Positions 42,594-50,010 of a stretch of 64,000 nucleotides of DNA are shown here, one piece after another. The DNA is from Justusliebigvirus alia. The first letter of the stretch is position 1. Each line of letters begins with the position of its first letter. The notes below the pieces were generated by a model, which saw only the letters and a list, made by a program, of their open reading frames with translations, was not told the DNA's origin and ran no database searches. The stretch lies in sequence record OZ035799.1. One strand, given 5' to 3'. The translations under genes and the position numbers were made by a program.

Positions 42594-42947
42594 TTACATC
42601 CACAGATTATGGAAATACTTAGCAAACAAAATGCGACCTTCTAAACGATCTTGCCGCTGCTTTTCATTAACTTCTTCTGGTGGAGTTGAGTCCTTAAAAG
42701 AAGACTCCATTTTTTCAAGAATTTCTAACCAGTGCTCTGATGCTCGTTCTTCCATATAAGGTAGATAGTCACCTTTAGCGTGTGGGTACATCCGACGAAG
42801 TAACCCACTAGGAATTTTAACATTATTTGTGGCTATCACTTTTGCACGATATGCAGAAAGTGCATTGTAGATCAGTTTACTTAGTGTCACATCTAAATCA
42901 AGAAGATCACTCTCTTCAAATTGAATTTCATCGTGTACAATTTTCAT
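42594..42947 (-). CDS. hypothetical protein
   Basis: 117-aa ORF; AAAGGAGAG RBS. Confidence 0.5.
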   Translation of the reverse strand: MKIVHDEIQFEESDLLDLDVTLSKLIYNALSAYRAKVIATNNVKIPSGLLRRMYPHAKGDYLPYMEERASEHWLEILEKMESSFKDSTPPEEVNEKQRQDRLEGRILFAKYFHNLWM

Positions 42948-42958
42948 ATCACTCTCCT

Positions 42959-43249
42959 TTATAGTAAAACACGTTTTGCACTGCTTGGTGCATTGTCGAA
43001 CATGTTTATCACTTTGTCAAGTTTGTGTATTAACTCGTTCGTAATGTTCCACTCTTTGTATGATCTCCATTGTTTCTTATTCTCACCTACCTGGTGTAAA
43101 ACTTTGATTGGTGCATTCAAACGTACATTGCGTTCTTTGTCCTCTTCAAAAGAGGCTAACCATTTTTCGTTATGCCCATGAACAGCAATAATAATGCCAA
43201 AACCATCAAAAGTTTCTGTAATATTCTTAGTTGCTAGTGTGATGTTCAT
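42959..43249 (-). CDS. hypothetical protein (first gene of leftward block)
   Basis: 96-aa ORF; AGAGGT RBS; divergent intergenic region upstream. Confidence 0.5.
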   Translation of the reverse strand: MNITLATKNITETFDGFGIIIAVHGHNEKWLASFEEDKERNVRLNAPIKVLHQVGENKKQWRSYKEWNITNELIHKLDKVINMFDNAPSSAKRVLL

Positions 43250-43312
43250 ATCTAACCTCTTTTGTTACGATACACACACACAGAGTACCAGAAATTAATT
43301 TCAGATCAAGTA

Positions 43313-43341
43313 TTGACATACTGTTTTATTGTGCTAATCTT
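43313..43341 (+). promoter_or_regulatory. putative sigma70 promoter (TTGACA-N17-AATCTT) in divergent intergenic region
   Basis: Perfect -35 hexamer, weak -10; 30 nt upstream of RBS/ATG at 43373. Confidence 0.3.
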
Positions 43342-43372
43342 AATGCATACACAAATGAGAGGAGATAAACGA

Positions 43373-43924
43373 ATGCAAAACATCGATCTTACTTGGATAG
43401 AAGCCAAAGAAGCAATGTTAAAAGGCAAACGCGTTAAACATAAATACTTCTGCGAAGGAGAATGGTTTGAAATGCGTAACCGATCCATTGTAGATGAAAA
43501 AGGGAATGACATGCAACAATGGTTCAAAAATGAAATTTGGCAGGGAACAGGTTGGTCTGTAGTTGAAGAGCAGCCTAGCTCAAGCGCACTGTTTAGCCCT
43601 ACTATGTATCGCGTTATCGGTGCTTTAGTTGTTGATCACGGAATTGCAGTGGAAAAAGAATGCTGGGAAGAGGTATCTTTTTTCAACCTGGCTTCTTATG
43701 CAAAAAGCCATATGCACTTGTTTGAAGAAGGGGATGAATTTGTTCTTCGTATGCGATACGGCAAAGAATTCAGATTACCACTTGATAACGATGTAGACAC
43801 TGTTGTAAAATGGTTAGCAGAGCATTATGCTTACGATGCAATTTGTGGTCGCAGCTTCGGCAACGAACGCTGGGACATGATTTGTGAAAAATATGATTTT
43901 GAGCCGGAGTACGGAGTTTTATAA
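43373..43924 (+). CDS. hypothetical protein
   Basis: Track ORF 43262..43924 starts at TTG upstream of promoter; ATG at 43373 follows GAGAGGAG. Confidence 0.55.
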   Translation: MQNIDLTWIEAKEAMLKGKRVKHKYFCEGEWFEMRNRSIVDEKGNDMQQWFKNEIWQGTGWSVVEEQPSSSALFSPTMYRVIGALVVDHGIAVEKECWEEVSFFNLASYAKSHMHLFEEGDEFVLRMRYGKEFRLPLDNDVDTVVKWLAEHYAYDAICGRSFGNERWDMICEKYDFEPEYGVL

Positions 43925-44175
43925 TGTTAAGTATCAAACCTAAAATGATAACAGAAGACGAAGCAGACTTTATTTTCAAATGTGGACGTGTATGGAGAGA
44001 ATTCACAAAAGGGAATGAAGTAGTGGTTGTTGTCGAACACAAGATATCTATTCAGGATCTGTTTGGACAATATGTTGATGTTATTAAATTAGGTATTGAC
44101 AAGGGTTTAGTTGAGGTGTTAACATTAGATCAAGTTGAAGCAGAGCACCTCGATAAAGTGGTGGTTGAATTTTAA
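43924..44175 (+). CDS. hypothetical protein
   Basis: 83-aa ORF; start overlaps upstream stop (TAATG). Confidence 0.5.
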   Translation: MLSIKPKMITEDEADFIFKCGRVWREFTKGNEVVVVVEHKISIQDLFGQYVDVIKLGIDKGLVEVLTLDQVEAEHLDKVVVEF

Positions 44176-44195
44176 AATACAGACGGGAGAAAGGT

Positions 44196-44369
44196 ATGAG
44201 TTTCTTTGTTACAGTATTTATGGCTATCTGGATTGTAGTCTCACTCGTTCTTTTCCTGGTGGGTTGTCTGGAAGAGATTAAGAAAGCGGTTATTTGCGGT
44301 TTCTTTGGCTTTATTATCTCTCCTGCCTGGATGTGGTTCTTCATTATGATTGGTTTCCTTAAAAGGTAA
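44196..44369 (+). CDS. small membrane protein (57 aa)
   Basis: Not in track; ATG after GGGAGAAAGG; two hydrophobic segments. Confidence 0.4.
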   Translation: MSFFVTVFMAIWIVVSLVLFLVGCLEEIKKAVICGFFGFIISPAWMWFFIMIGFLKR

Positions 44370-44383
44370 GTGAGGAATAAAGA

Positions 44384-44821
44384 ATGAGTAAAACAAACGC
44401 AATCGCAGATAAAGCAACGGATGTACTTCTGAACATGGTTAACGTCACTATTCAAACAATGAGTGATGTTGTGGAGTTTGGAAAACAACAAATTCCAGAA
44501 GTAATCCATCAATTATTAGTGTGGAAAGCAGTATCCGCAGGTTTATGGCAACTTTTTAGTATTTGCTTTATGGTTATTACTTTTATTGCTGTGCGGAACC
44601 TCGTAAAAGCAATTAAAGATAAAGAATGCCTGTGGTCACGAGATCGCTATGGTGAAGTATCTGCTTTACCTATTGTTGGCCTTGTTGTCTGTGCTTTCTT
44701 TTTCTTTTTAGGATTTGTTATTTTCTTTTCGAATTTTGATTGGCTAAAAATCATTATTGCACCAAAAGTGTATCTGATTGAATTTGCTGCTGATTTAATT
44801 CGTTCATCTCAACAAAAATAA
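44384..44821 (+). CDS. membrane protein
   Basis: 145 aa; GAGGA RBS; hydrophobic helices. Confidence 0.5.
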   Translation: MSKTNAIADKATDVLLNMVNVTIQTMSDVVEFGKQQIPEVIHQLLVWKAVSAGLWQLFSICFMVITFIAVRNLVKAIKDKECLWSRDRYGEVSALPIVGLVVCAFFFFLGFVIFFSNFDWLKIIIAPKVYLIEFAADLIRSSQQK

Positions 44822-44832
44822 AAGGGGTTAAA

Positions 44833-45960
44833 ATGAAATACACGATTTATGGTGATATTGTAAGTGTAAATAAAGATATGGGCGTGGAATCTAACTATCT
44901 TCCACCTGGATTCTATACTGTTAGTCGTGATCCCCTTGGCAATTACTTTTTAAGCCGTGGTAATCTAACAGGTGTACCGGATGTTCTGTATGGTGAAACA
45001 GAAAAACGAGCAAATCACGTTATTCGTACATTCCATCGCCGGAGTGCACAAGGTAAAAATACAGGTTTGCTCCTGACAGGCACTAAGGGCAGTGGTAAAA
45101 CTATGTTAGCCAAACTCATTAGTCGTGACCTTGTAGAAGAAGGTATTCCAACTATTATGGTTACTCAAGCCTACAGTGATGCTAATTTCATTGAGCTTAT
45201 TAGCAAGATCACCGACAAAGCAGTGATTATTTTTGACGAGTTTGATAAAGTATATGAGAAGAAACAAGATCAAGAAGCACTTCTCACTTTGTTAGATGGT
45301 ACTGGCAGTGGTAATAAACTGTTTATTCTGACTAAAAACAGTGGTTTTATCTCTGAATTCTTTTTAAATCGTCCTAGTCGTGTGTTTTATAATTTTAATT
45401 ATGATAAAATCTCACTAGAAACTATGATTGACTATTTAGATAAAAACCTGGATAACAAAGCACACTTTGATAATTTCCAAAGACTTTGGGATGTAAGTTT
45501 AGAGTTGTCCTTTGATGTGATCCAAGGTATAGTAGAAGAACTTAATTTCTACCCTGATTTATCCTTTAAAGAATGCATCTCTATGATGGGCGTTTCTTTG
45601 GGTGGTGGTAATAAGTGGGATATCAGCAGCGTTGTTATTAATGGGAAACTTCAGAAAGTTAGCTGGGTATCTAGTTGGCATAACTTCACACCTGCAATCT
45701 TTTTAGGTGGCTCGTGCACACTAGACGTGTACTTGTCATCTCCAAGTGATGCAGACTCTAAAGAAGCCCTTGCTAATAGCTCTTACGTGGTTTTTGATGA
45801 TGAAGGAGATGCTCGAATTCCATTGAATGCGACAAAAATGAAAGCAGATCTTATTACAGGCGGTAAAATCGTTGTGTTTAGTGATGATCCAGAAGATTCT
45901 TTCCGTATTGTTCTGGAACCAACTATCACCAATGGTGCAACTTTGGCAAGCGTGTTTTAA
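44833..45960 (+). CDS. AAA+ ATPase (paralog B)
   Basis: 375 aa; Walker A GTKGSGKT, Walker B IIFDEFDK; many conserved blocks shared with 28140-29300 gene. Confidence 0.75.
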   Translation: MKYTIYGDIVSVNKDMGVESNYLPPGFYTVSRDPLGNYFLSRGNLTGVPDVLYGETEKRANHVIRTFHRRSAQGKNTGLLLTGTKGSGKTMLAKLISRDLVEEGIPTIMVTQAYSDANFIELISKITDKAVIIFDEFDKVYEKKQDQEALLTLLDGTGSGNKLFILTKNSGFISEFFLNRPSRVFYNFNYDKISLETMIDYLDKNLDNKAHFDNFQRLWDVSLELSFDVIQGIVEELNFYPDLSFKECISMMGVSLGGGNKWDISSVVINGKLQKVSWVSSWHNFTPAIFLGGSCTLDVYLSSPSDADSKEALANSSYVVFDDEGDARIPLNATKMKADLITGGKIVVFSDDPEDSFRIVLEPTITNGATLASVF

Positions 45961-45975
45961 GTAAGCCAGCAAATA

Positions 45976-46000
45976 AAAACCCGCTCCGGCGGGTTTTCTT
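45976..46000 (+). terminator. rho-independent terminator (CCCGC-TCCG-GCGGG + T-run)
   Basis: GC stem followed by TTTTCTT after ATPase gene. Confidence 0.5.
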
Positions 46001-46034
46001 GTATTGATGCCAGATTTAATAAGAGGAGTAATAG

Positions 46035-47207
46035 ATGACAGCACCAAAATCATGGGAACAATATAAAGAAGAATTAACACCCCTTGCTAAAAATCGCAAT
46101 ATTCAAATCCTGGGTTATGTTGGTGAATGGAAAGGGAACAAGACTAAACTTAAGCTATCTTGCCCTAAACATGGAGAGTGGAACACCACGAACATTAATG
46201 ATTTTAAGAAGGGACGTGGTTGTCCTATCTGTTCTGGTAAGAAGCCGTTAACATGGGAAACAGAATTGCCGATCTTGGAAGAGATAGCACAGAAGAGGGG
46301 GTATCAGGTGTTAGGGTACGTGGGAGAATGGAAAGGGAATAAAACAAAACTTGATTTGTTGTGTCATTGTGGTAATAAATGGGATACTACAAGTATTAAC
46401 AATTTTAAACGTGGTAGCGGTTGTCCACAATGTAAGAGGGAGAGACAAACAATGTCCGACGATCAACATATTGCAGATTTCTTTTCTACAGGGGAATTTA
46501 AGGAAGGCACTATCTTCACCAATACAGGGAAACGTAACAAGCGTGATGCAGTATGGATGGTTGAGTGTCCTGTTTGCTCCCATGATGAATATGTTCAAGC
46601 AGGTGTTTGTGATGGTAAATTTTACTCTGCAGGACATAACCTTAAACAAGGGTATATTCCGTGTCGTTGTGGGAACTATCAGTATACAGAAGACCAGATC
46701 ACCTATAGGGTAAAAAAGGAAGTAGAAGGGAAAGGGTATGTCTGGGTAGATTGGATTACCAAACCCTCTTCTATAGGTAAGTTTAAATATCTTTGTCTTG
46801 TGCATGGTGATCAGATAGGGAGTGCTCGTAATTTATTAAGCCTCGGTCAAGGTTGTCCACAGTGTGCTGGTCATAATCAACAGCAATTATATATTAATAT
46901 TGTTAAAGATAATGATATTATAGTTGCTCTTAAGTTTGGTATATCTAAAGATAGCGATAGACGATTAAACGGTCAAAATAGCCGTAATCTGTTTTTTATG
47001 GAGCGTATTTGTTTATATGATTTTAGCACAGTGAAACAATGTAAGGCTGCTGAAAGAGCTATAAAGAAAAAATTAAAAACTGGTATTTTAACGGAAAGAG
47101 AGTTGAAAGACGGTTATACAGAAACAGTAAGTGTTTCTGATTTGGAAAATCTTCAAAAAATTATTACACAATATGGTGGCAAATTAGTATACAGTAAGGA
47201 GATGTAA
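46035..47207 (+). CDS. tandem zinc-ribbon protein, possible homing-endonuclease-like/DNA-binding protein
   Basis: 390 aa; two ~45-aa repeats (LGYVGEWKGNKTKL...C..HG.W...IN.FK.G.GCP.C) plus two degenerate Cys4 units. Confidence 0.35.
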   Translation: MTAPKSWEQYKEELTPLAKNRNIQILGYVGEWKGNKTKLKLSCPKHGEWNTTNINDFKKGRGCPICSGKKPLTWETELPILEEIAQKRGYQVLGYVGEWKGNKTKLDLLCHCGNKWDTTSINNFKRGSGCPQCKRERQTMSDDQHIADFFSTGEFKEGTIFTNTGKRNKRDAVWMVECPVCSHDEYVQAGVCDGKFYSAGHNLKQGYIPCRCGNYQYTEDQITYRVKKEVEGKGYVWVDWITKPSSIGKFKYLCLVHGDQIGSARNLLSLGQGCPQCAGHNQQQLYINIVKDNDIIVALKFGISKDSDRRLNGQNSRNLFFMERICLYDFSTVKQCKAAERAIKKKLKTGILTERELKDGYTETVSVSDLENLQKIITQYGGKLVYSKEM

Positions 47208-47759
47208 ATGCGGATTACTGATAAGTATGTGTTCTTCTTTTCAGCAAAAGATGAATTTAGCAACTGGTATCTATCATCTTTTATTGAACCTTTAGCACCC
47301 AAGTATAATAATTCTATTACAAGTTCTGTTGAATTTACTTGTGTGGAACAATATATGATGTGGAGAAAAGCATGTTTGTTTTATGATTACAGTATTGCAT
47401 CTTCTATTTTAACCGGAGATCTAAGATATACAGGAGAAAAAGAACAAGCATATTATAAACGACTAGGCAGATTAGTTAAAGATTATGATGAAGATACCTG
47501 GGCTTCTTTACGGGAGAAGATTGTCAAGCGTGGTTTGTATCTTAAATACACACAAAATGAAGATCTCAAAAATAAACTTATCGCTTACGCAGATAAGGAG
47601 TTCGTAGAGGCAAGCCCTTATGATTCTATTTATGGTATCAAAATGGGGATGTGGGATCGTGACGTGGAAAATAAGGACTGTTGGAAAGGACAAAATCTTT
47701 TAGGAAAATGGCATACAGACCTTGCTGTTTATCTAAAAGCACAATCTGATATTTCCTGA
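47208..47759 (+). CDS. NADAR/YbiA-like (DUF1768) protein
   Basis: 183 aa; FSNWY and EQYMMWRKA motifs typical of NADAR family; starts at stop of upstream gene. Confidence 0.55.
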   Translation: MRITDKYVFFFSAKDEFSNWYLSSFIEPLAPKYNNSITSSVEFTCVEQYMMWRKACLFYDYSIASSILTGDLRYTGEKEQAYYKRLGRLVKDYDEDTWASLREKIVKRGLYLKYTQNEDLKNKLIAYADKEFVEASPYDSIYGIKMGMWDRDVENKDCWKGQNLLGKWHTDLAVYLKAQSDIS

Positions 47760-47974
47760 TATTTTGAAAATTTTTATTTTTATAAAAAGGGGTGTGGGTT
47801 TCATGTACGGAAATTCACCCTCTGAATAATATATCCAGAGTAAGTATTATTTTGTACTCTGTTAATAAATTATTTAATTTGTTTGTTGGAATATGTTATC
47901 TGGTTTTTAAAAGGCATACTATCTCTTAACTACTACTTATAACAGAACAGTAAAATCATTTTTATAAAAAGGAC

Positions 47975-48180
47975 AAAATTATTTAAAGTTTTTACAGATT
48001 TTTGGGTACAAATTTAGAAAATGAAAAGTTCAAGTTTGGTCAAAATTATTTAAAGTTTTTGTACGTATTTCTATCCAGATTTTGAAAATGAAAACTTCAA
48101 TTTTTTAAAAATTCCCCAGTTTATTTAAAGTTTTTTTGCCTTTTTCCGTAGAAAAATCAAAAATGAAAAGTTCAATTTCG
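47975..48180. repeat. three copies of ~55-bp direct repeat (AAAATTATTTAAAGTTTTT...GAAAATGAAAAGTTCAA)
   Basis: Both sub-motifs recur three times in same order within 200 bp of AT-rich non-coding DNA. Confidence 0.6.
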
Positions 48181-48198
48181 TGTTTTTATGGGTGTGCG

Positions 48199-48312
48199 TA
48201 TGATAATCATTTTCATTTGTAAATGAGAATCATTATCATTTAAGTATGTAAGTGATAATCATTCTCACTAAGAGAATGAGAATCATTAGCAAATGAGAAT
48301 TTTTCTCATTTA
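48199..48312. promoter_or_regulatory. cluster of five Fur-box-like palindromes
   Basis: TGATAATCATTTTC, TGAGAATCATTATC, TGATAATCATTCTC, GAGAATCATTAGC and perfect palindrome AAATGAGAA-TTT-TTCTCATTT; up to 13/14 match to GATAATGATAATCATTATC core. Confidence 0.45.
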
Positions 48313-48573
48313 GAGAATAACGCGCAGGGGTGGTGTTTGTCTCGCGCTCCCGTGTCCCCTCGCCATACAATAAGAATAGCATAACCAACAACAAAAGCAA
48401 GCGATTATTTTTATCTTTACATTTCTTTACAAATTTATTTTAGACGAGCTACCGGCGATCAACCTTCCAACCAGTAGTGCCCTGGTATGTTAGCCCCGCC
48501 TTTACGCCGTGGGGGTGGCGTTTCCTCTTCTGTATGTAAAACAGTATAAGCCCGATCCCTGGGCTTGTCAAGA

Positions 48574-48840
48574 TTATTTTTTGTTTTCTTGCCAGGATAG
48601 GACACCTAACCAAAAATACATGTCGCCCCGCGCCCCTGGCGGGATCTTGCTTTCCCCGCCGCCACTGCAAGCCCATAGATAACCATTTACGAACGTATCA
48701 AAGTGATCTATCTCTTCCACCTTATGATTGCCCAGGTTGAGAACGGTTTCAACCTTTAAGCCCGTTGCGCTTGCTACCTGGTGCACCGTGCCGCCTTGCC
48801 AGCCCAATGAGTGCATGAGATGTAAAGGAGTATTTGTCAT
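48574..48840 (-). CDS. hypothetical protein encoded in GC-rich island
   Basis: 88-aa ORF (MTNTPLHLMHSLGWQGG...) with AAAGGG RBS; surrounding ~600 bp clearly more GC-rich than rest of window. Confidence 0.3.
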   Translation of the reverse strand: MTNTPLHLMHSLGWQGGTVHQVASATGLKVETVLNLGNHKVEEIDHFDTFVNGYLWACSGGGESKIPPGARGDMYFWLGVLSWQENKK

Positions 48841-49105
48841 GGTATCGCCCTTTCTTTGATGTGCGCCCTGGTTGGCGCGGTAGAAAGATAATAGCCGTTT
48901 CCTTTATAGATAGCAAGCAAAAAAGAAATGAAAAAAGATTAAAAAAATGGTTGACGTTCCTCACCTGGTAGCGTAGTATTCATCTTGTCGAGGGGGCGAG
49001 GCACAACGACAATAAACAAAAGGAGGGCGCAATGTAGGACGGGCAAAGGTGAGGATCTCCACAATCCACCGTCACAATAACATTACTTATAAAAGGTTGA
49101 TAACG

Positions 49106-49201
49106 ATGATCAAGAAAGAAAACAGCTTGACGGTTGGAACGATTAACGCTATCATTCTTGCCGTTCCATTTTGGGTTGTAGTAGCGGTTATTATTTTTTA
49201 A
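49106..49201 (+). CDS. possible small membrane peptide (31 aa)
   Basis: ATG with weak AAGG; hydrophobic; not in track. Confidence 0.2.
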   Translation: MIKKENSLTVGTINAIILAVPFWVVVAVIIF

Positions 49202-49209
49202 AAATATTC

Positions 49210-49267
49210 TTGACAACGTTTTTTAATCTGATAAGATGTATCACATAGGGCGGCAATAGTGCCGCTC
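49210..49267 (+). promoter_or_regulatory. promoter-hairpin cassette (TTGACA ... CACATAGGGCGGCAATAGTGCCGCTC)
   Basis: sigma70 -35, then conserved CACATAGGG element with stem GCGGCA/TGCCGC, ~22 nt before ATG 49290. Confidence 0.55.
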
Positions 49268-49289
49268 ATAACAGAAGAGAGAAATAATC

Positions 49290-49562
49290 ATGGCATCATA
49301 TAGCGCATCAATGATTGTAATGGGTATCACTGGTAAACCTATGCGCGGTGGCGGATCTTTCGCTAACATCAATATTGATGGACGTTTATCCCTGGACGCA
49401 GCGATCACAGTGGCACGGGAAACGTTTAAAAAAGAATGTAATTTCAATAAACAAGATTATCTCGGCTTCGTTATTGAAAAAACCGCGCGCTTTGTTGATT
49501 ATAAAAGCCCGAAAATGATCGACACTACACTAAAGGCGCAAGATGTAGCTTTTTTGCTTTAA
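49290..49562 (+). CDS. hypothetical small early-type protein
   Basis: 90-aa track ORF behind cassette. Confidence 0.6.
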   Translation: MASYSASMIVMGITGKPMRGGGSFANINIDGRLSLDAAITVARETFKKECNFNKQDYLGFVIEKTARFVDYKSPKMIDTTLKAQDVAFLL

Positions 49563-49565
49563 GGC

Positions 49566-49625
49566 TTGACACTGAAAAATAATTTGGTAATATATACCAC
49601 ATAAGGCGGGAAATGGTTTCCCGCC
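49566..49625 (+). promoter_or_regulatory. promoter-hairpin cassette (TTGACA ... GGCGGGAAATGGTTTCCCGCC)
   Basis: Perfect 9-bp inverted repeat with TGG loop downstream of -35/-10. Confidence 0.6.
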
Positions 49626-49647
49626 AAATCAAAGAAAGGGTAACACA

Positions 49648-50010
49648 ATGAGCAAGCAAATCAATACTATCATGTTAAACCTGGTATCTTTCCGTGATGA
49701 CGTGAAAAATCTTTCGCGTGATGCAGTGGATGCACGGATCGAAAGCTATCGCACACAGATCGCAACATTACCGTTAAAACGTGATCAACATGCCGCTAAT
49801 ATGATGCTTGATGCTATGATTAAAAAGATGATTCAGTGTGATCTTACCCTGGCTTATGAATATGCTGGCGATCTCTTTGTAACGTATAATAAGCCCGTTC
49901 CAGGTATGAGCACCACGGAAGAATTGCATGCCTTAAATCTGCGACAAGATGCATGGGATAACATGCGCCGTGTTATGGTATGGGCCGAAAGCGGTAAAAT
50001 TTACGAATAA
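49648..50010 (+). CDS. hypothetical protein
   Basis: 120-aa track ORF; AAAGGG RBS. Confidence 0.6.
   Translation: MSKQINTIMLNLVSFRDDVKNLSRDAVDARIESYRTQIATLPLKRDQHAANMMLDAMIKKMIQCDLTLAYEYAGDLFVTYNKPVPGMSTTEELHALNLRQDAWDNMRRVMVWAESGKIYE

Follow-up and report, generated by a model that had tools for sequence, protein, structure and literature searches.

Two kinds of described system stand closest to the locus analysed here. The first is AdfN^Bas60, the anti-DarT factor NADAR of the BASEL phages Bas60, Bas61 and Bas62. Johannesman, Carlson & LeRoux (Nat Commun 2025;16:1598; PMC11825919) showed that this protein neutralises the DarT1 toxin in E. coli. AdfN^Bas60 restores plaquing of RB69, T5 and Bas25 on hosts carrying DarTG1 but not on those carrying DarTG2, and it acts alone when expressed ectopically from a plasmid, 'no additional phage factors' being required (PMC11825919). 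Genetics on the Justusliebigvirus group was also sought in the HIDEN-SEQ preprint and none was found, its coverage being T4, Bas37 and Bas54 only. The second kind of system comprises the CapR-repeat T5orf172 homing endonucleases of the Vibrio phage ICP1, for example gp165 and gp174, with tandem CapR/DUF723/DUF4379 repeats in the N-terminal part and a T5orf172 domain in the C-terminal part (Barth et al. 2023; Netter et al. 2021). This architecture and the shuffling of its repeats have been described for T5orf172 homing endonucleases (PMC10448857, PMC8096241).

The window, the whole stretch of 64,000 nt analysed here, comes from a Justusliebigvirus, a myovirus of E. coli that resembles phi92, and its sequence matches OZ035770.1 at 100% identity. 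Both open reading frames listed by an earlier sequence-only reading of this DNA are present, on the + strand, with products of 390 and 183 aa. That reading had presented them as a candidate anti-defence pair. The two are most probably independent genes that are neighbours by chance in phi92-like phages, namely a stand-alone AdfN ortholog and a homing-endonuclease-type nuclease. Domain identities, folds, catalytic residues, mosaicism and the lack of co-distribution were computed here, while the enzymatic and anti-DarTG1 activities come from the literature on the ortholog. The features of the locus are as follows.

45976..45997, + strand, intrinsic terminator-like hairpin, AAAACCCGCTCCGGCGGGTTTT followed by T-rich sequence, in the gap separating the AAA ATPase and endonuclease genes (consensus scan and sequence reading)
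46021..46028, + strand, Shine-Dalgarno of the endonuclease gene, AAGAGGAG, ending 6 nt before the start codon ATG (46035) (sequence reading)
46035..47207, + strand, homing-endonuclease-type gene with four CapR stretches and a T5orf172 domain (GIY-YIG superfamily), 390 aa
46077..46244, + strand, zinc-finger module 1, aa 15-70, ligands C43, H46, C63 and C66
46113..46151, + strand, 39-nt intragenic direct repeat, left copy, junction of a one-unit deletion allele
46278..46445, + strand, zinc-finger module 2, aa 82-137, ligands C110, C112, C130 and C133, best CapR stretch at aa 81-134
46314..46352, + strand, 39-nt intragenic direct repeat, right copy, 82% identical to the left copy and 201 nt (67 codons) away
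46512..46679, + strand, zinc-finger module 3, divergent, about aa 160-215, CxxC...CxC ligands C178, C181, C210 and C212
46689..46874, + strand, zinc-finger module 4, aa 219-280, ligands C254, H257, C274 and C277
46875..47204, + strand, T5orf172 / GIY-YIG-fold nuclease domain, aa 281-390
47196..47201, + strand, Shine-Dalgarno of the NADAR gene, AAGGAG, inside the 3'-terminal codons of the endonuclease ORF (sequence reading)
47208..47759, + strand, adfN-type NADAR gene, 183 aa, a predicted guanine-ADP-ribose DNA glycohydrolase and anti-DarTG1 factor (from ortholog data)

No strong sigma-70-like promoter was detected by consensus scan between the hairpin and the endonuclease ATG. The endonuclease stop codon TAA (47205-47207) directly abuts the NADAR ATG, and on its other side the NADAR gene borders a non-coding repeat region. 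An Rfam scan of the non-coding stretch downstream of the NADAR gene matched no family, and a tRNA scan gave none in the whole window.

Judged from profile and model, the downstream gene encodes a genuine NADAR with a predicted YbiA fold. The profile search that the sequence-only reading had proposed as a check matches Pfam PF08719 (DUF1768) at E 3.4e-36, scoring 125.4 bits where the family threshold is 35.1, over profile positions 9-154 of 163; the motifs from which the family had been recognised are confirmed at residues 17-21 (FSNWY) and 47-55 (EQYMMWRKA). The AF2 model reaches a pLDDT of 97 and a pTM of 0.91. Foldseek places it next to the P. nicotianae NADAR (8BAU, TM 0.77) and E. coli YbiA (2B3W, TM 0.69-0.74), the closest solved structures, with no other match at E <1. 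Sequence identity to these two proteins is 21-28%, and the catalytic Glu/Glu/Asp positions are common to all three. By phmmer, the protein is related to PnNADAR at E 6e-13, and the catalytic and ADPr-binding residues E43, E125 and D130 of PnNADAR align to E47, E134 and D139, which are invariant across 35 homologs. YbiA itself is a housekeeping N-glycosidase of riboflavin metabolism, and the phage protein carries a short insert near residues 28-40.

Orthology to the Bas60 protein is close. The two sequences (bas60_0111 for Bas60) are identical at 181 of 183 positions (98.9%), and the Bas62 protein at 180 of 183. Only two conservative substitutions separate the phage NADAR from AdfN^Bas60, which has the same genus, locus, protein length and gene neighbours; the upstream endonuclease is present as a different allele, of 390 aa here versus 467 aa in Bas60. 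The earlier suggestion that the NADAR counters DarT-type toxins is borne out by the experiments on this 98.9%-identical ortholog, and the anti-DarT role predicted for the gene is already published for AdfN^Bas60. By this orthology, the protein would be a stand-alone ADP-ribosylglycohydrolase that strips the ADP-ribose placed by the host DarT1 toxin on guanine bases of phage DNA, which would restore replication in DarTG1-carrying E. coli. It would be inactive on the thymidine adducts of DarT2.

The question of whether reversal of DarT1 is the main natural role of the protein has been considered separately. Other ADP-ribose adducts, or soluble ADPr- or NAD-derived molecules, could be the principal target, and possible candidates include another ART toxin (YarT-like or PDC-M42-type), cytidine adducts, NAD salvage or an N-glycosidase activity of the YbiA kind acting on riboflavin intermediates. 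The last-strand catalytic residue of the phage protein is Glu (E134, in 'VEAS'), as in YbiA, whereas DarG1, the DarT1-associated antitoxin of the BC4488 family, has Asp at this position. PADLOC gave no DarT or DarG match, and no DarT1 toxin gene lies beside the NADAR; the nearest profile was PDC-M42C, a candidate defence component, at E 2e-34. NADARs that are 40-46% identical lie on contigs of 310-455 kb, and on the jumbo-phage-like contigs relatives at 40-44% identity are found amid NAMPT, phosphoribosyltransferase and NMNAT-like genes, in line with the association between NADARs and NAD-salvage neighbourhoods noted by Iyer et al. (2022). A bacterial origin of these contigs, with a toxin partner for the NADAR, was considered and rejected, their neighbourhoods being jumbo-phage-like with NAD-salvage genes. 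Johannesman et al. also group AdfN^Bas60 with non-DarT-associated bacterial NADARs (PMC11825919). The PDC-M42C match and the YbiA-type Glu together imply that DarT1 may not be the only or main natural opponent of the phage NADAR. A main role other than DarT1 reversal is nevertheless unlikely, given that the ortholog neutralises DarT1 and rescues phages from DarTG1 in vivo (PMC11825919).

The 390-aa protein is inferred to be a nuclease of the homing-endonuclease type, of the T5orf172 family within the GIY-YIG superfamily, with nuclease activity and homing or allele competition as its probable functions. Pfam CapR matches it in four stretches (E 9e-44), and DUF4379 and DUF723 also exceed their cut-offs. 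Modules 1, 3 and 4 were read from secondary structure as well, and the CxxC...CxC pattern of module 3 is the canonical CapR ligand order (CapR motif definition, PMC8096241). The sequence-only reading had described two near-identical zinc-ribbon repeats and two degenerate copies. Four zinc-binding units are indeed found, each with four ligands, but 'near-identical' overstates the likeness of modules 1 and 2, which agree at 31 of 50 protein positions (62%; alignment score 182 vs 25 +/- 5 for shuffles) and resemble each other at the DNA level only within the 39-nt core (82% identical). Repeat 4 is related to repeats 1 and 2 with a score reached by 0/500 shuffles, and repeat 3 is recognisable only through the profile and its ligand pattern. 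The proposed 'C..HG.W' motif is exact in repeat 1 and partly kept in repeat 4 (CLVHGDQ, without the W); repeat 2 reads CHCGNKW instead.

The C-terminal domain is recognised by several lines of comparison. The direct Pfam match to T5orf172 is marginal (20.9 bits vs a cut-off of 20, E 5e-4), and among 38 homologs 18 match T5orf172 and 7 match MUG113. The last 110 aa match the phage T5 endonuclease T5.141 at E 1e-10 (tblastn), and the protein matches PHROG 681 'endonuclease' at E 5e-87. The conserved Tyr/Arg/Glu core of the GIY-YIG fold is present, as part of a Tyr/Lys-Gly/Arg/Glu core that is invariant among homologs; the invariant residues are Y286, K300, G302, R310, Q314, E340 and D359-G360-x-T362-E363-T364. 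A homing-endonuclease-like gene, which had been the fallback of the sequence-only reading, is the version upheld by the CapR fingers and the T5orf172/GIY-YIG domain. The gene is in single copy, no paralog having been found in the window. Target recognition would fall to the four tandem CapR-type fingers, with cleavage close by through the C-terminal domain.

The endonuclease gene holds one fixed position, following an AAA ATPase gene of high conservation. Each of the 11 Stephanstirmvirinae loci examined shows the succession AAA ATPase, endonuclease, NADAR, with a truncated endonuclease in one. A locus free of the endonuclease was sought in the phage collection (megablast and tblastn), in IMG/VR with the NADAR as bait (5 loci) and in seven annotated relatives, a set that includes part of the Phapecoctavirus genomes, and none was found. 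Patchy presence with empty target sites, the classic sign of homing-endonuclease mobility, is thus not observed here (0/11 loci empty). Turnover at the slot takes the form of allele and module replacement. Alleles with 3 (Bas61), 4 (this phage and Bas62) or 5 (Bas60) modules occur, units being gained or lost in register, and in a one-unit deletion allele from IMG/VR the junction falls exactly inside the LGYVGEWKGNKTKL stretch shared by the copies of the 39-nt repeat.

Comparison with phi92 gives 100% identity for the ATPase, 59.5% for the DNA-binding half of the endonuclease, 93.6% for its nuclease domain and 97.8% for the NADAR. The segment 46400-46900 has 57-65% nucleotide identity to phi92, while 46400-46600 and 46700-46800 have 81-86% to phAPEC8, a phage of a different genus. 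Synonymous divergence (dS) is 2.2 in the variable segment vs 0.10 in the flanks, with a dN/dS of 0.2-0.6, and the dN/dS of the endonuclease is several-fold above that of the neighbouring genes. Positive selection in situ was rejected for the variable segment, since dS is saturated and dN/dS is below 1; the same two observations point to old alleles imported by recombination. Recombination that exchanges the DNA-binding modules, whether across repeats within the gene or from one phage genus to another, would retarget the enzyme.

A domesticated function of the CapR-T5orf172 gene has to be weighed against homing. It could be a transcriptional regulator, comparable to PLE CapR or to I-TevI autorepression, or a competition or counter-parasite nuclease of the ICP1 Odn type whose DNA-binding modules diversify under an arms race against satellites or other phages in the same cell. 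Its presence in the same slot in every relative, with no empty site, agrees with such a function, as do purifying selection, an invariant nuclease core with module turnover concentrated in the DNA-binding half, and the ICP1/PLE precedents for domesticated T5orf172 and CapR proteins (PMC10448857, PMC8096241). The same features, however, fit an old homing endonuclease that persists by allele replacement, the truncated copy in one relative suggests dispensability, and the raised dN/dS also argues against domestication, which is accordingly held to be doubtful. A broader proposal is judged somewhat less probable again. It holds that the gene is a permanent, diversifying nuclease, acting in allele exclusion or in Odn-like attack on parasites with modules swapped to retarget it, that it forms a co-expressed 'conflict cassette' with adfN, and that the NADAR was captured from a bacterial PDC-M42 system, which rather than DarTG1 would be its natural opponent. 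If so, the slot would be kept in all phi92-like and phAPEC8-like phages for co-infection or satellite conflicts, rival alleles of the phage's own locus would be cut, and module swaps, even across genera, would serve to retarget the nuclease.

Least probable by far is a functional pair, whether because the NADAR is brought to phage DNA or helped there by a DNA-bound zinc-finger protein, or because the two oppose one ADP-ribosylating defence: strict adjacency, the embedded Shine-Dalgarno and the order conserved in 11/11 loci speak for it, but plasmid-borne AdfN^Bas60 alone is enough for full neutralisation of DarT1 and for the rescue of three unrelated phages (PMC11825919), the upstream protein is no pure DNA binder, having a conserved nuclease domain, its alleles differ by up to ~65% where the NADARs are 90-99% identical, with no co-variation, and the two families are apart in all other lineages examined.

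The interpretation as two independent genes agrees with their distributions. Relatives of the NADAR are present in 716 phage records and members of the endonuclease family in 528, in different taxa and contexts. NADAR loci without the endonuclease are found in Seunavirus, Mydovirus, a Staphylococcus phage, an IMG/VR contig and the jumbo-phage-like contigs, and in the sister genus Phapecoctavirus two other genes lie between endonuclease and NADAR. With the autonomy reported for AdfN^Bas60, these observations run against the anti-defence pair, and the 'nucleic-acid-binding partner', of the sequence-only reading. What connects the two genes is their physical contact and, probably, shared transcription or translation, and nothing else, co-transcription being presumed; the conserved order and, in Justusliebigvirus, the abutting genes with an embedded Shine-Dalgarno make some coupling of expression likely, and they leave a low probability for a functional link specific to the subfamily.

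Currently, most of the ~55 Justusliebigvirus genomes label both genes 'hypothetical protein', 'GTP cyclohydrolase II' or 'YbiA-like N-glycosidase', labels that could be replaced by adfN (anti-DarTG1 NADAR) and CapR/T5orf172 homing-endonuclease-type nuclease. A counter-defence against DarTG1 is worth knowing because phages of this kind are considered for the therapy of E. coli infections. The endonuclease locus also offers a natural example of in-register gain and loss of zinc-finger modules and of exchange across genera.

Comparison with known systems places both genes within described families. In the NADAR case, AdfN^T4 (gp30.3) and DarG1 have the NADAR fold and guanine-ADP-ribose glycohydrolase chemistry, and counter the same defence as the AdfN^Bas60 type. 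They belong to a clade other than that of the phage NADAR, and gp30.3-type proteins have His at the last-strand position occupied here by E134. Unlike AdfN^T4, the Bas60-type enzyme also protects the unmodified DNA of unrelated phages and of the host (PMC11825919).

For the endonuclease, PLE CapR and ICP1 Odn are precedents for non-selfish roles. PLE CapR, a domesticated repressor, has the zinc-finger module in common with the 390-aa protein but lacks a nuclease domain, and a CapR-type repressor without nuclease was rejected as an identity for the latter, which has an invariant one. Odn, a domesticated T5orf172 nuclease, has the nuclease domain in common but binds through RepA_N, not through CapR fingers (PMC10448857). 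The nearest likeness is to the ICP1-type homing endonucleases, whose domain layout is that of the 390-aa protein; in tblastn the latter matches genes annotated 'putative homing endonuclease' in ICP1, with E 1e-23 and about 28% identity. In both, repeat number shifts through recombination between intragenic repeats and modules are swapped between genomes. The ICP1 genes are patchy, with 3-5 matching places per ICP1 record among the matches listed, whereas the Justusliebigvirus genome has one copy, in a slot fixed in every relative examined. The locus is thus ordinary and already explained; it adds no new principle and extends the description made in Vibrio phage ICP1 to coliphages.

Between 44800 and 48000 the sequence matches OZ035770.1 (Justusliebigvirus alia) at 100% identity. 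About 55 phi92-like E. coli myoviruses of the subfamily Stephanstirmvirinae, among them the BASEL phages Bas60 (PaulScherrer) and Bas62 (JohannJBalmer), show 94-99% identity over this region. Four 146-kb 'Campylobacter phage' records (MG065645, MG065689, MG065639 and MG065656; host C. jejuni) share 93-94.5% identity with this E. coli phage region, and their host label looks doubtful. The two adjacent open reading frames predicted by the sequence-only reading lie at exactly the coordinates proposed, and the NADAR motifs it cited are found in the second product. The locus comprises:

44833-45960, AAA ATPase gene upstream of the endonuclease gene (PHROG 2376)
45976-45997, intrinsic terminator-like hairpin 3′ of the ATPase gene
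46035-47207, + strand, endonuclease gene (390 aa)
47208-47759, + strand, NADAR gene (183 aa)

The 183-aa product matches the Pfam NADAR family (E 3.4e-36) and PHROG 1017 (E 6e-50), and aligns with the solved NADAR of P. nicotianae (8BAU; E 6e-13). In the latter, E43, E125 and D130 contact ADP-ribose and contribute to catalysis (Schuller et al., PMC11543638); once a two-residue numbering offset is allowed for, they correspond to E47, E134 and D139 of the phage protein, which are invariant across 35 aligned homologs with identities down to 35%. The structural model (pLDDT 97) matches only 8BAU (TM 0.77) and E. coli YbiA (TM 0.69-0.74).

The function of this protein has already been published for an ortholog with 98.9% identity and is not new. 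The phage NADAR shares 181/183 residues with bas60_0111 of Bas60 and 180/183 with the Bas62 protein. According to Johannesman, Carlson and LeRoux (Nat Commun 2025;16:1598; PMC11825919; preprint PMC11257639), the bas60_0111 protein, named AdfN^Bas60, neutralises DarT1 in E. coli, and its ectopic expression lets RB69, T5 and Bas25 regain plaquing on DarTG1 hosts. They also describe AdfN^Bas60 as sufficient alone and DarTG2 as unaffected by it. The earlier proposal of a NADAR acting against DarT was thus right, the evidence being that published for an essentially identical, ectopically expressed protein. In the proposed mechanism, which is established for the ortholog, host DarT1 ADP-ribosylates guanines of the phage DNA; hydrolysis of the N-glycosidic bond by the NADAR then allows replication to go on. 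Among PADLOC models, the phage NADAR matches the candidate defence-system model PDC-M42C (E 1.9e-34) and no DarG model; no mention of PDC-M42 was found in the literature searched. As a pointer, this profile match hints that the phage clade may be derived from, or may counter, an uncharacterised bacterial system.

The sequence-only reading had proposed the two genes as a candidate anti-defence pair, for which no supporting evidence was found: the occurrence and contexts of the two families differ, endonuclease alleles vary independently of the NADAR and the NADAR is sufficient alone. Phage records with a NADAR of this clade number 716 (Staphylococcus, Listeria, Bacillus, Enterococcus, Klebsiella, Xanthomonas and others), and those with a member of the endonuclease family 528 (Escherichia 178, Vibrio 174, also Klebsiella, Salmonella, Aeromonas and others), with ICP1, phage T5 and large phages of ~350 kb among the matches listed. 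Neither endonuclease nor ATPase lies near the NADAR loci of Seunavirus, Mydovirus, a Staphylococcus phage and an unrelated IMG/VR contig, and the endonuclease allele changes without a parallel change in the NADAR. On jumbo-phage-like contigs, NADARs stand amid NAD-salvage genes. Metagenomic contigs of 310-455 kb (L017, L019 and L021/L022) carry NADAR homologs of 40-44% identity in jumbo-phage-like gene arrays; neighbouring genes encode NAMPT/NAPRTase, a PRPP-type phosphoribosyltransferase, an NMNAT-like nucleotidyltransferase, a nucleoside deoxyribosyltransferase, an Apyc1-like anti-Pycsar protein and GIY-YIG endonucleases, which looks like a NAD-salvage and counter-defence neighbourhood.

What links the endonuclease and NADAR genes is their layout. 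The order AAA ATPase, endonuclease, NADAR is kept in 11/11 Stephanstirmvirinae loci examined, of which seven are in annotated genomes and four on IMG/VR contigs. The endonuclease gene has no good sigma-70 promoter ahead of it, the AAGGAG of the NADAR gene lies inside the last endonuclease codons, and the endonuclease TAA abuts the NADAR ATG; co-transcription, possibly with translational coupling, is plausible from this arrangement. The best 25 of 32 Pfam matches of the ATPase are all AAA or P-loop NTPase domains (peptidase 0/25), and the protein is 100% identical to phi92 gp221 (dN/dS ~0). Relatives' annotation calls it 'FtsH-like protease' or 'ATPase or Zn metalloprotease'. Phapecoctavirus has two small ORFs, of 121 aa and 59-62 aa, between endonuclease and NADAR (L002 6238-6805, L008 3946-4504, L011 5227-5785), with no counterpart anywhere in the window; this genus-level indel falls right at the 3′ boundary of the endonuclease.

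Flanking features are as follows:

47760-48320, AT-rich non-coding stretch directly 3′ of the NADAR gene
47958-48178, three direct repeats of ~70-79 nt (71-72% identity to the reference copy)
48199-48312, cluster of ATGAGAATCATT-like direct and inverted repeats
48571-48543, - strand, sigma-70 promoter match (11/12)
48574-48840, - strand, 88-aa ORF, 'hypothetical' in relatives' annotation

The stretch 47760-48320 has no Rfam match; it may serve as an origin or iteron array or else as a regulatory hub. Phage alia (NC_052655) carries two otherwise unannotated 'repeat_region' features at about equal distance downstream of its NADAR gene. Beyond the non-coding stretch, 48320-49050 is relatively G+C-rich (0.405 in 48001-50000 versus 0.346 in 46001-48000) and holds several terminator-like hairpins. 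At ~42900-44400, gene strand switches from - to + near 43250 and GC skew changes sign at the same place; the cumulative GC skew minimum lies at ~42-44 kb. This is a divergent transcription point, perhaps related to replication.

The 390-aa protein contains four zinc-binding units with four ligands each. Units 1 and 2, previously called near-identical, are clearly homologous (alignment score 182 versus 25 +/- 5 for shuffled sequence) at an identity of only 62% (31/50); unit 4 is significantly related to both, and unit 3 is identifiable by profile and ligand pattern only. Pfam assigns it four CapR homology domains (E 9e-44), together with the related zinc fingers DUF4379 and DUF723; a T5orf172 match at residues 291-349 barely exceeds the threshold. 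PHROG 681 'endonuclease' matches over the full length (E 5e-87). Among 38 diverse homologs, CapR is matched in 38/38, T5orf172 in 18/38 and MUG113 in 7/38. In the model, which is confident (pLDDT 91), four small helix/beta zinc modules precede a beta-beta-alpha-beta-alpha domain. Family alignment reveals invariant Y286, K300, G302, R310, Q314, E340 and D359-G-x-T-E363-T, located where the GIY / YIG / Arg / Glu core is expected, which suggests catalytic roles. By tblastn the protein is linked to 'putative homing endonuclease' genes of ICP1 and to T5 endonuclease T5.141; several orthologs are labelled 'endonuclease' in RefSeq and one 'CapR homology domain-containing protein' in UniRef.

Within its fixed slot, the endonuclease is much more variable than the neighbouring genes.

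Identity of endonuclease parts and neighbouring genes
Window versus phi92: ATPase 100%; DNA-binding part 59.5%; nuclease domain 93.6%; NADAR 97.8%
Within Phapecoctavirus: ATPase at least 99.5%; DNA-binding part 34-48%; nuclease domain 34-97%; NADAR 89-99%

Full-length endonucleases within Phapecoctavirus are 35-62% identical. The variable segment spans 46000-46900 at the nucleotide level. Identity to phi92 is 57-65% over 46400-46900, and 46400-46600 and 46700-46800 are 81-86% identical to phAPEC8, of another genus, whose flanks reach only ~55-75%. Since dS is saturated in the variable segment (2.2 versus 0.10 in the flanks) and dN/dS is 0.2-0.6 (versus 0-0.08 for ATPase and NADAR), the segment is an old divergent allele imported by recombination, in an endonuclease still under purifying selection. 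Homolog lengths follow steps of ~325, 390, 467 and 545 aa. An IMG/VR allele (L014, 323 aa) has lost exactly one unit, with its junction within the LGYVGEWKGNKTKL stretch common to units 1 and 2, which corresponds to a 39-nt direct repeat (46113-46151 and 46314-46352, 201 nt spacing). Bas60 and the alia type strain carry an extra in-register unit. The alia genome OZ035770.1 has a 390-aa, 4-module allele and the type genome NC_052655.1 (74819-76216) a 465-aa, 5-module one, so genomes of one species differ in this gene; the endonuclease region of the window is 93.8% identical overall to that type genome. In Escherichia phage vB_EcoM_01 (L009 2390-3642, Phapecoctavirus), the annotated endonuclease is the C-terminal 206 aa only, after a 630-bp unannotated gap following the ATPase gene; this reflects either decay of the copy or an artefact of sequencing or annotation.

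By analogy with its family, the endonuclease would recognise a specific DNA site through its zinc-finger array and cut nearby with its GIY-YIG-type domain; its allele would then be copied during repair from a co-infecting genome, and module exchange would retarget the enzyme. No endonuclease-free site was found among the Stephanstirmvirinae loci examined, and the endonuclease therefore either persists by allele competition or is domesticated, the latter being rather unlikely.

In comparison with known systems, the last-strand residue of the phage NADAR is Glu, as in YbiA, whereas DarT1-associated antitoxins carry Asp and T4 gp30.3 carries His. T5orf172 homing endonucleases of ICP1 and other phages have tandem CapR fingers, and changes in repeat number through recombination between intragenic repeats have been described for them (Netter et al. 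2021, PMC8096241; Barth et al. 2023, PMC10448857). The architecture of the 390-aa protein matches theirs exactly, and the endonuclease is a new member of this family, behaving as the family has been described.
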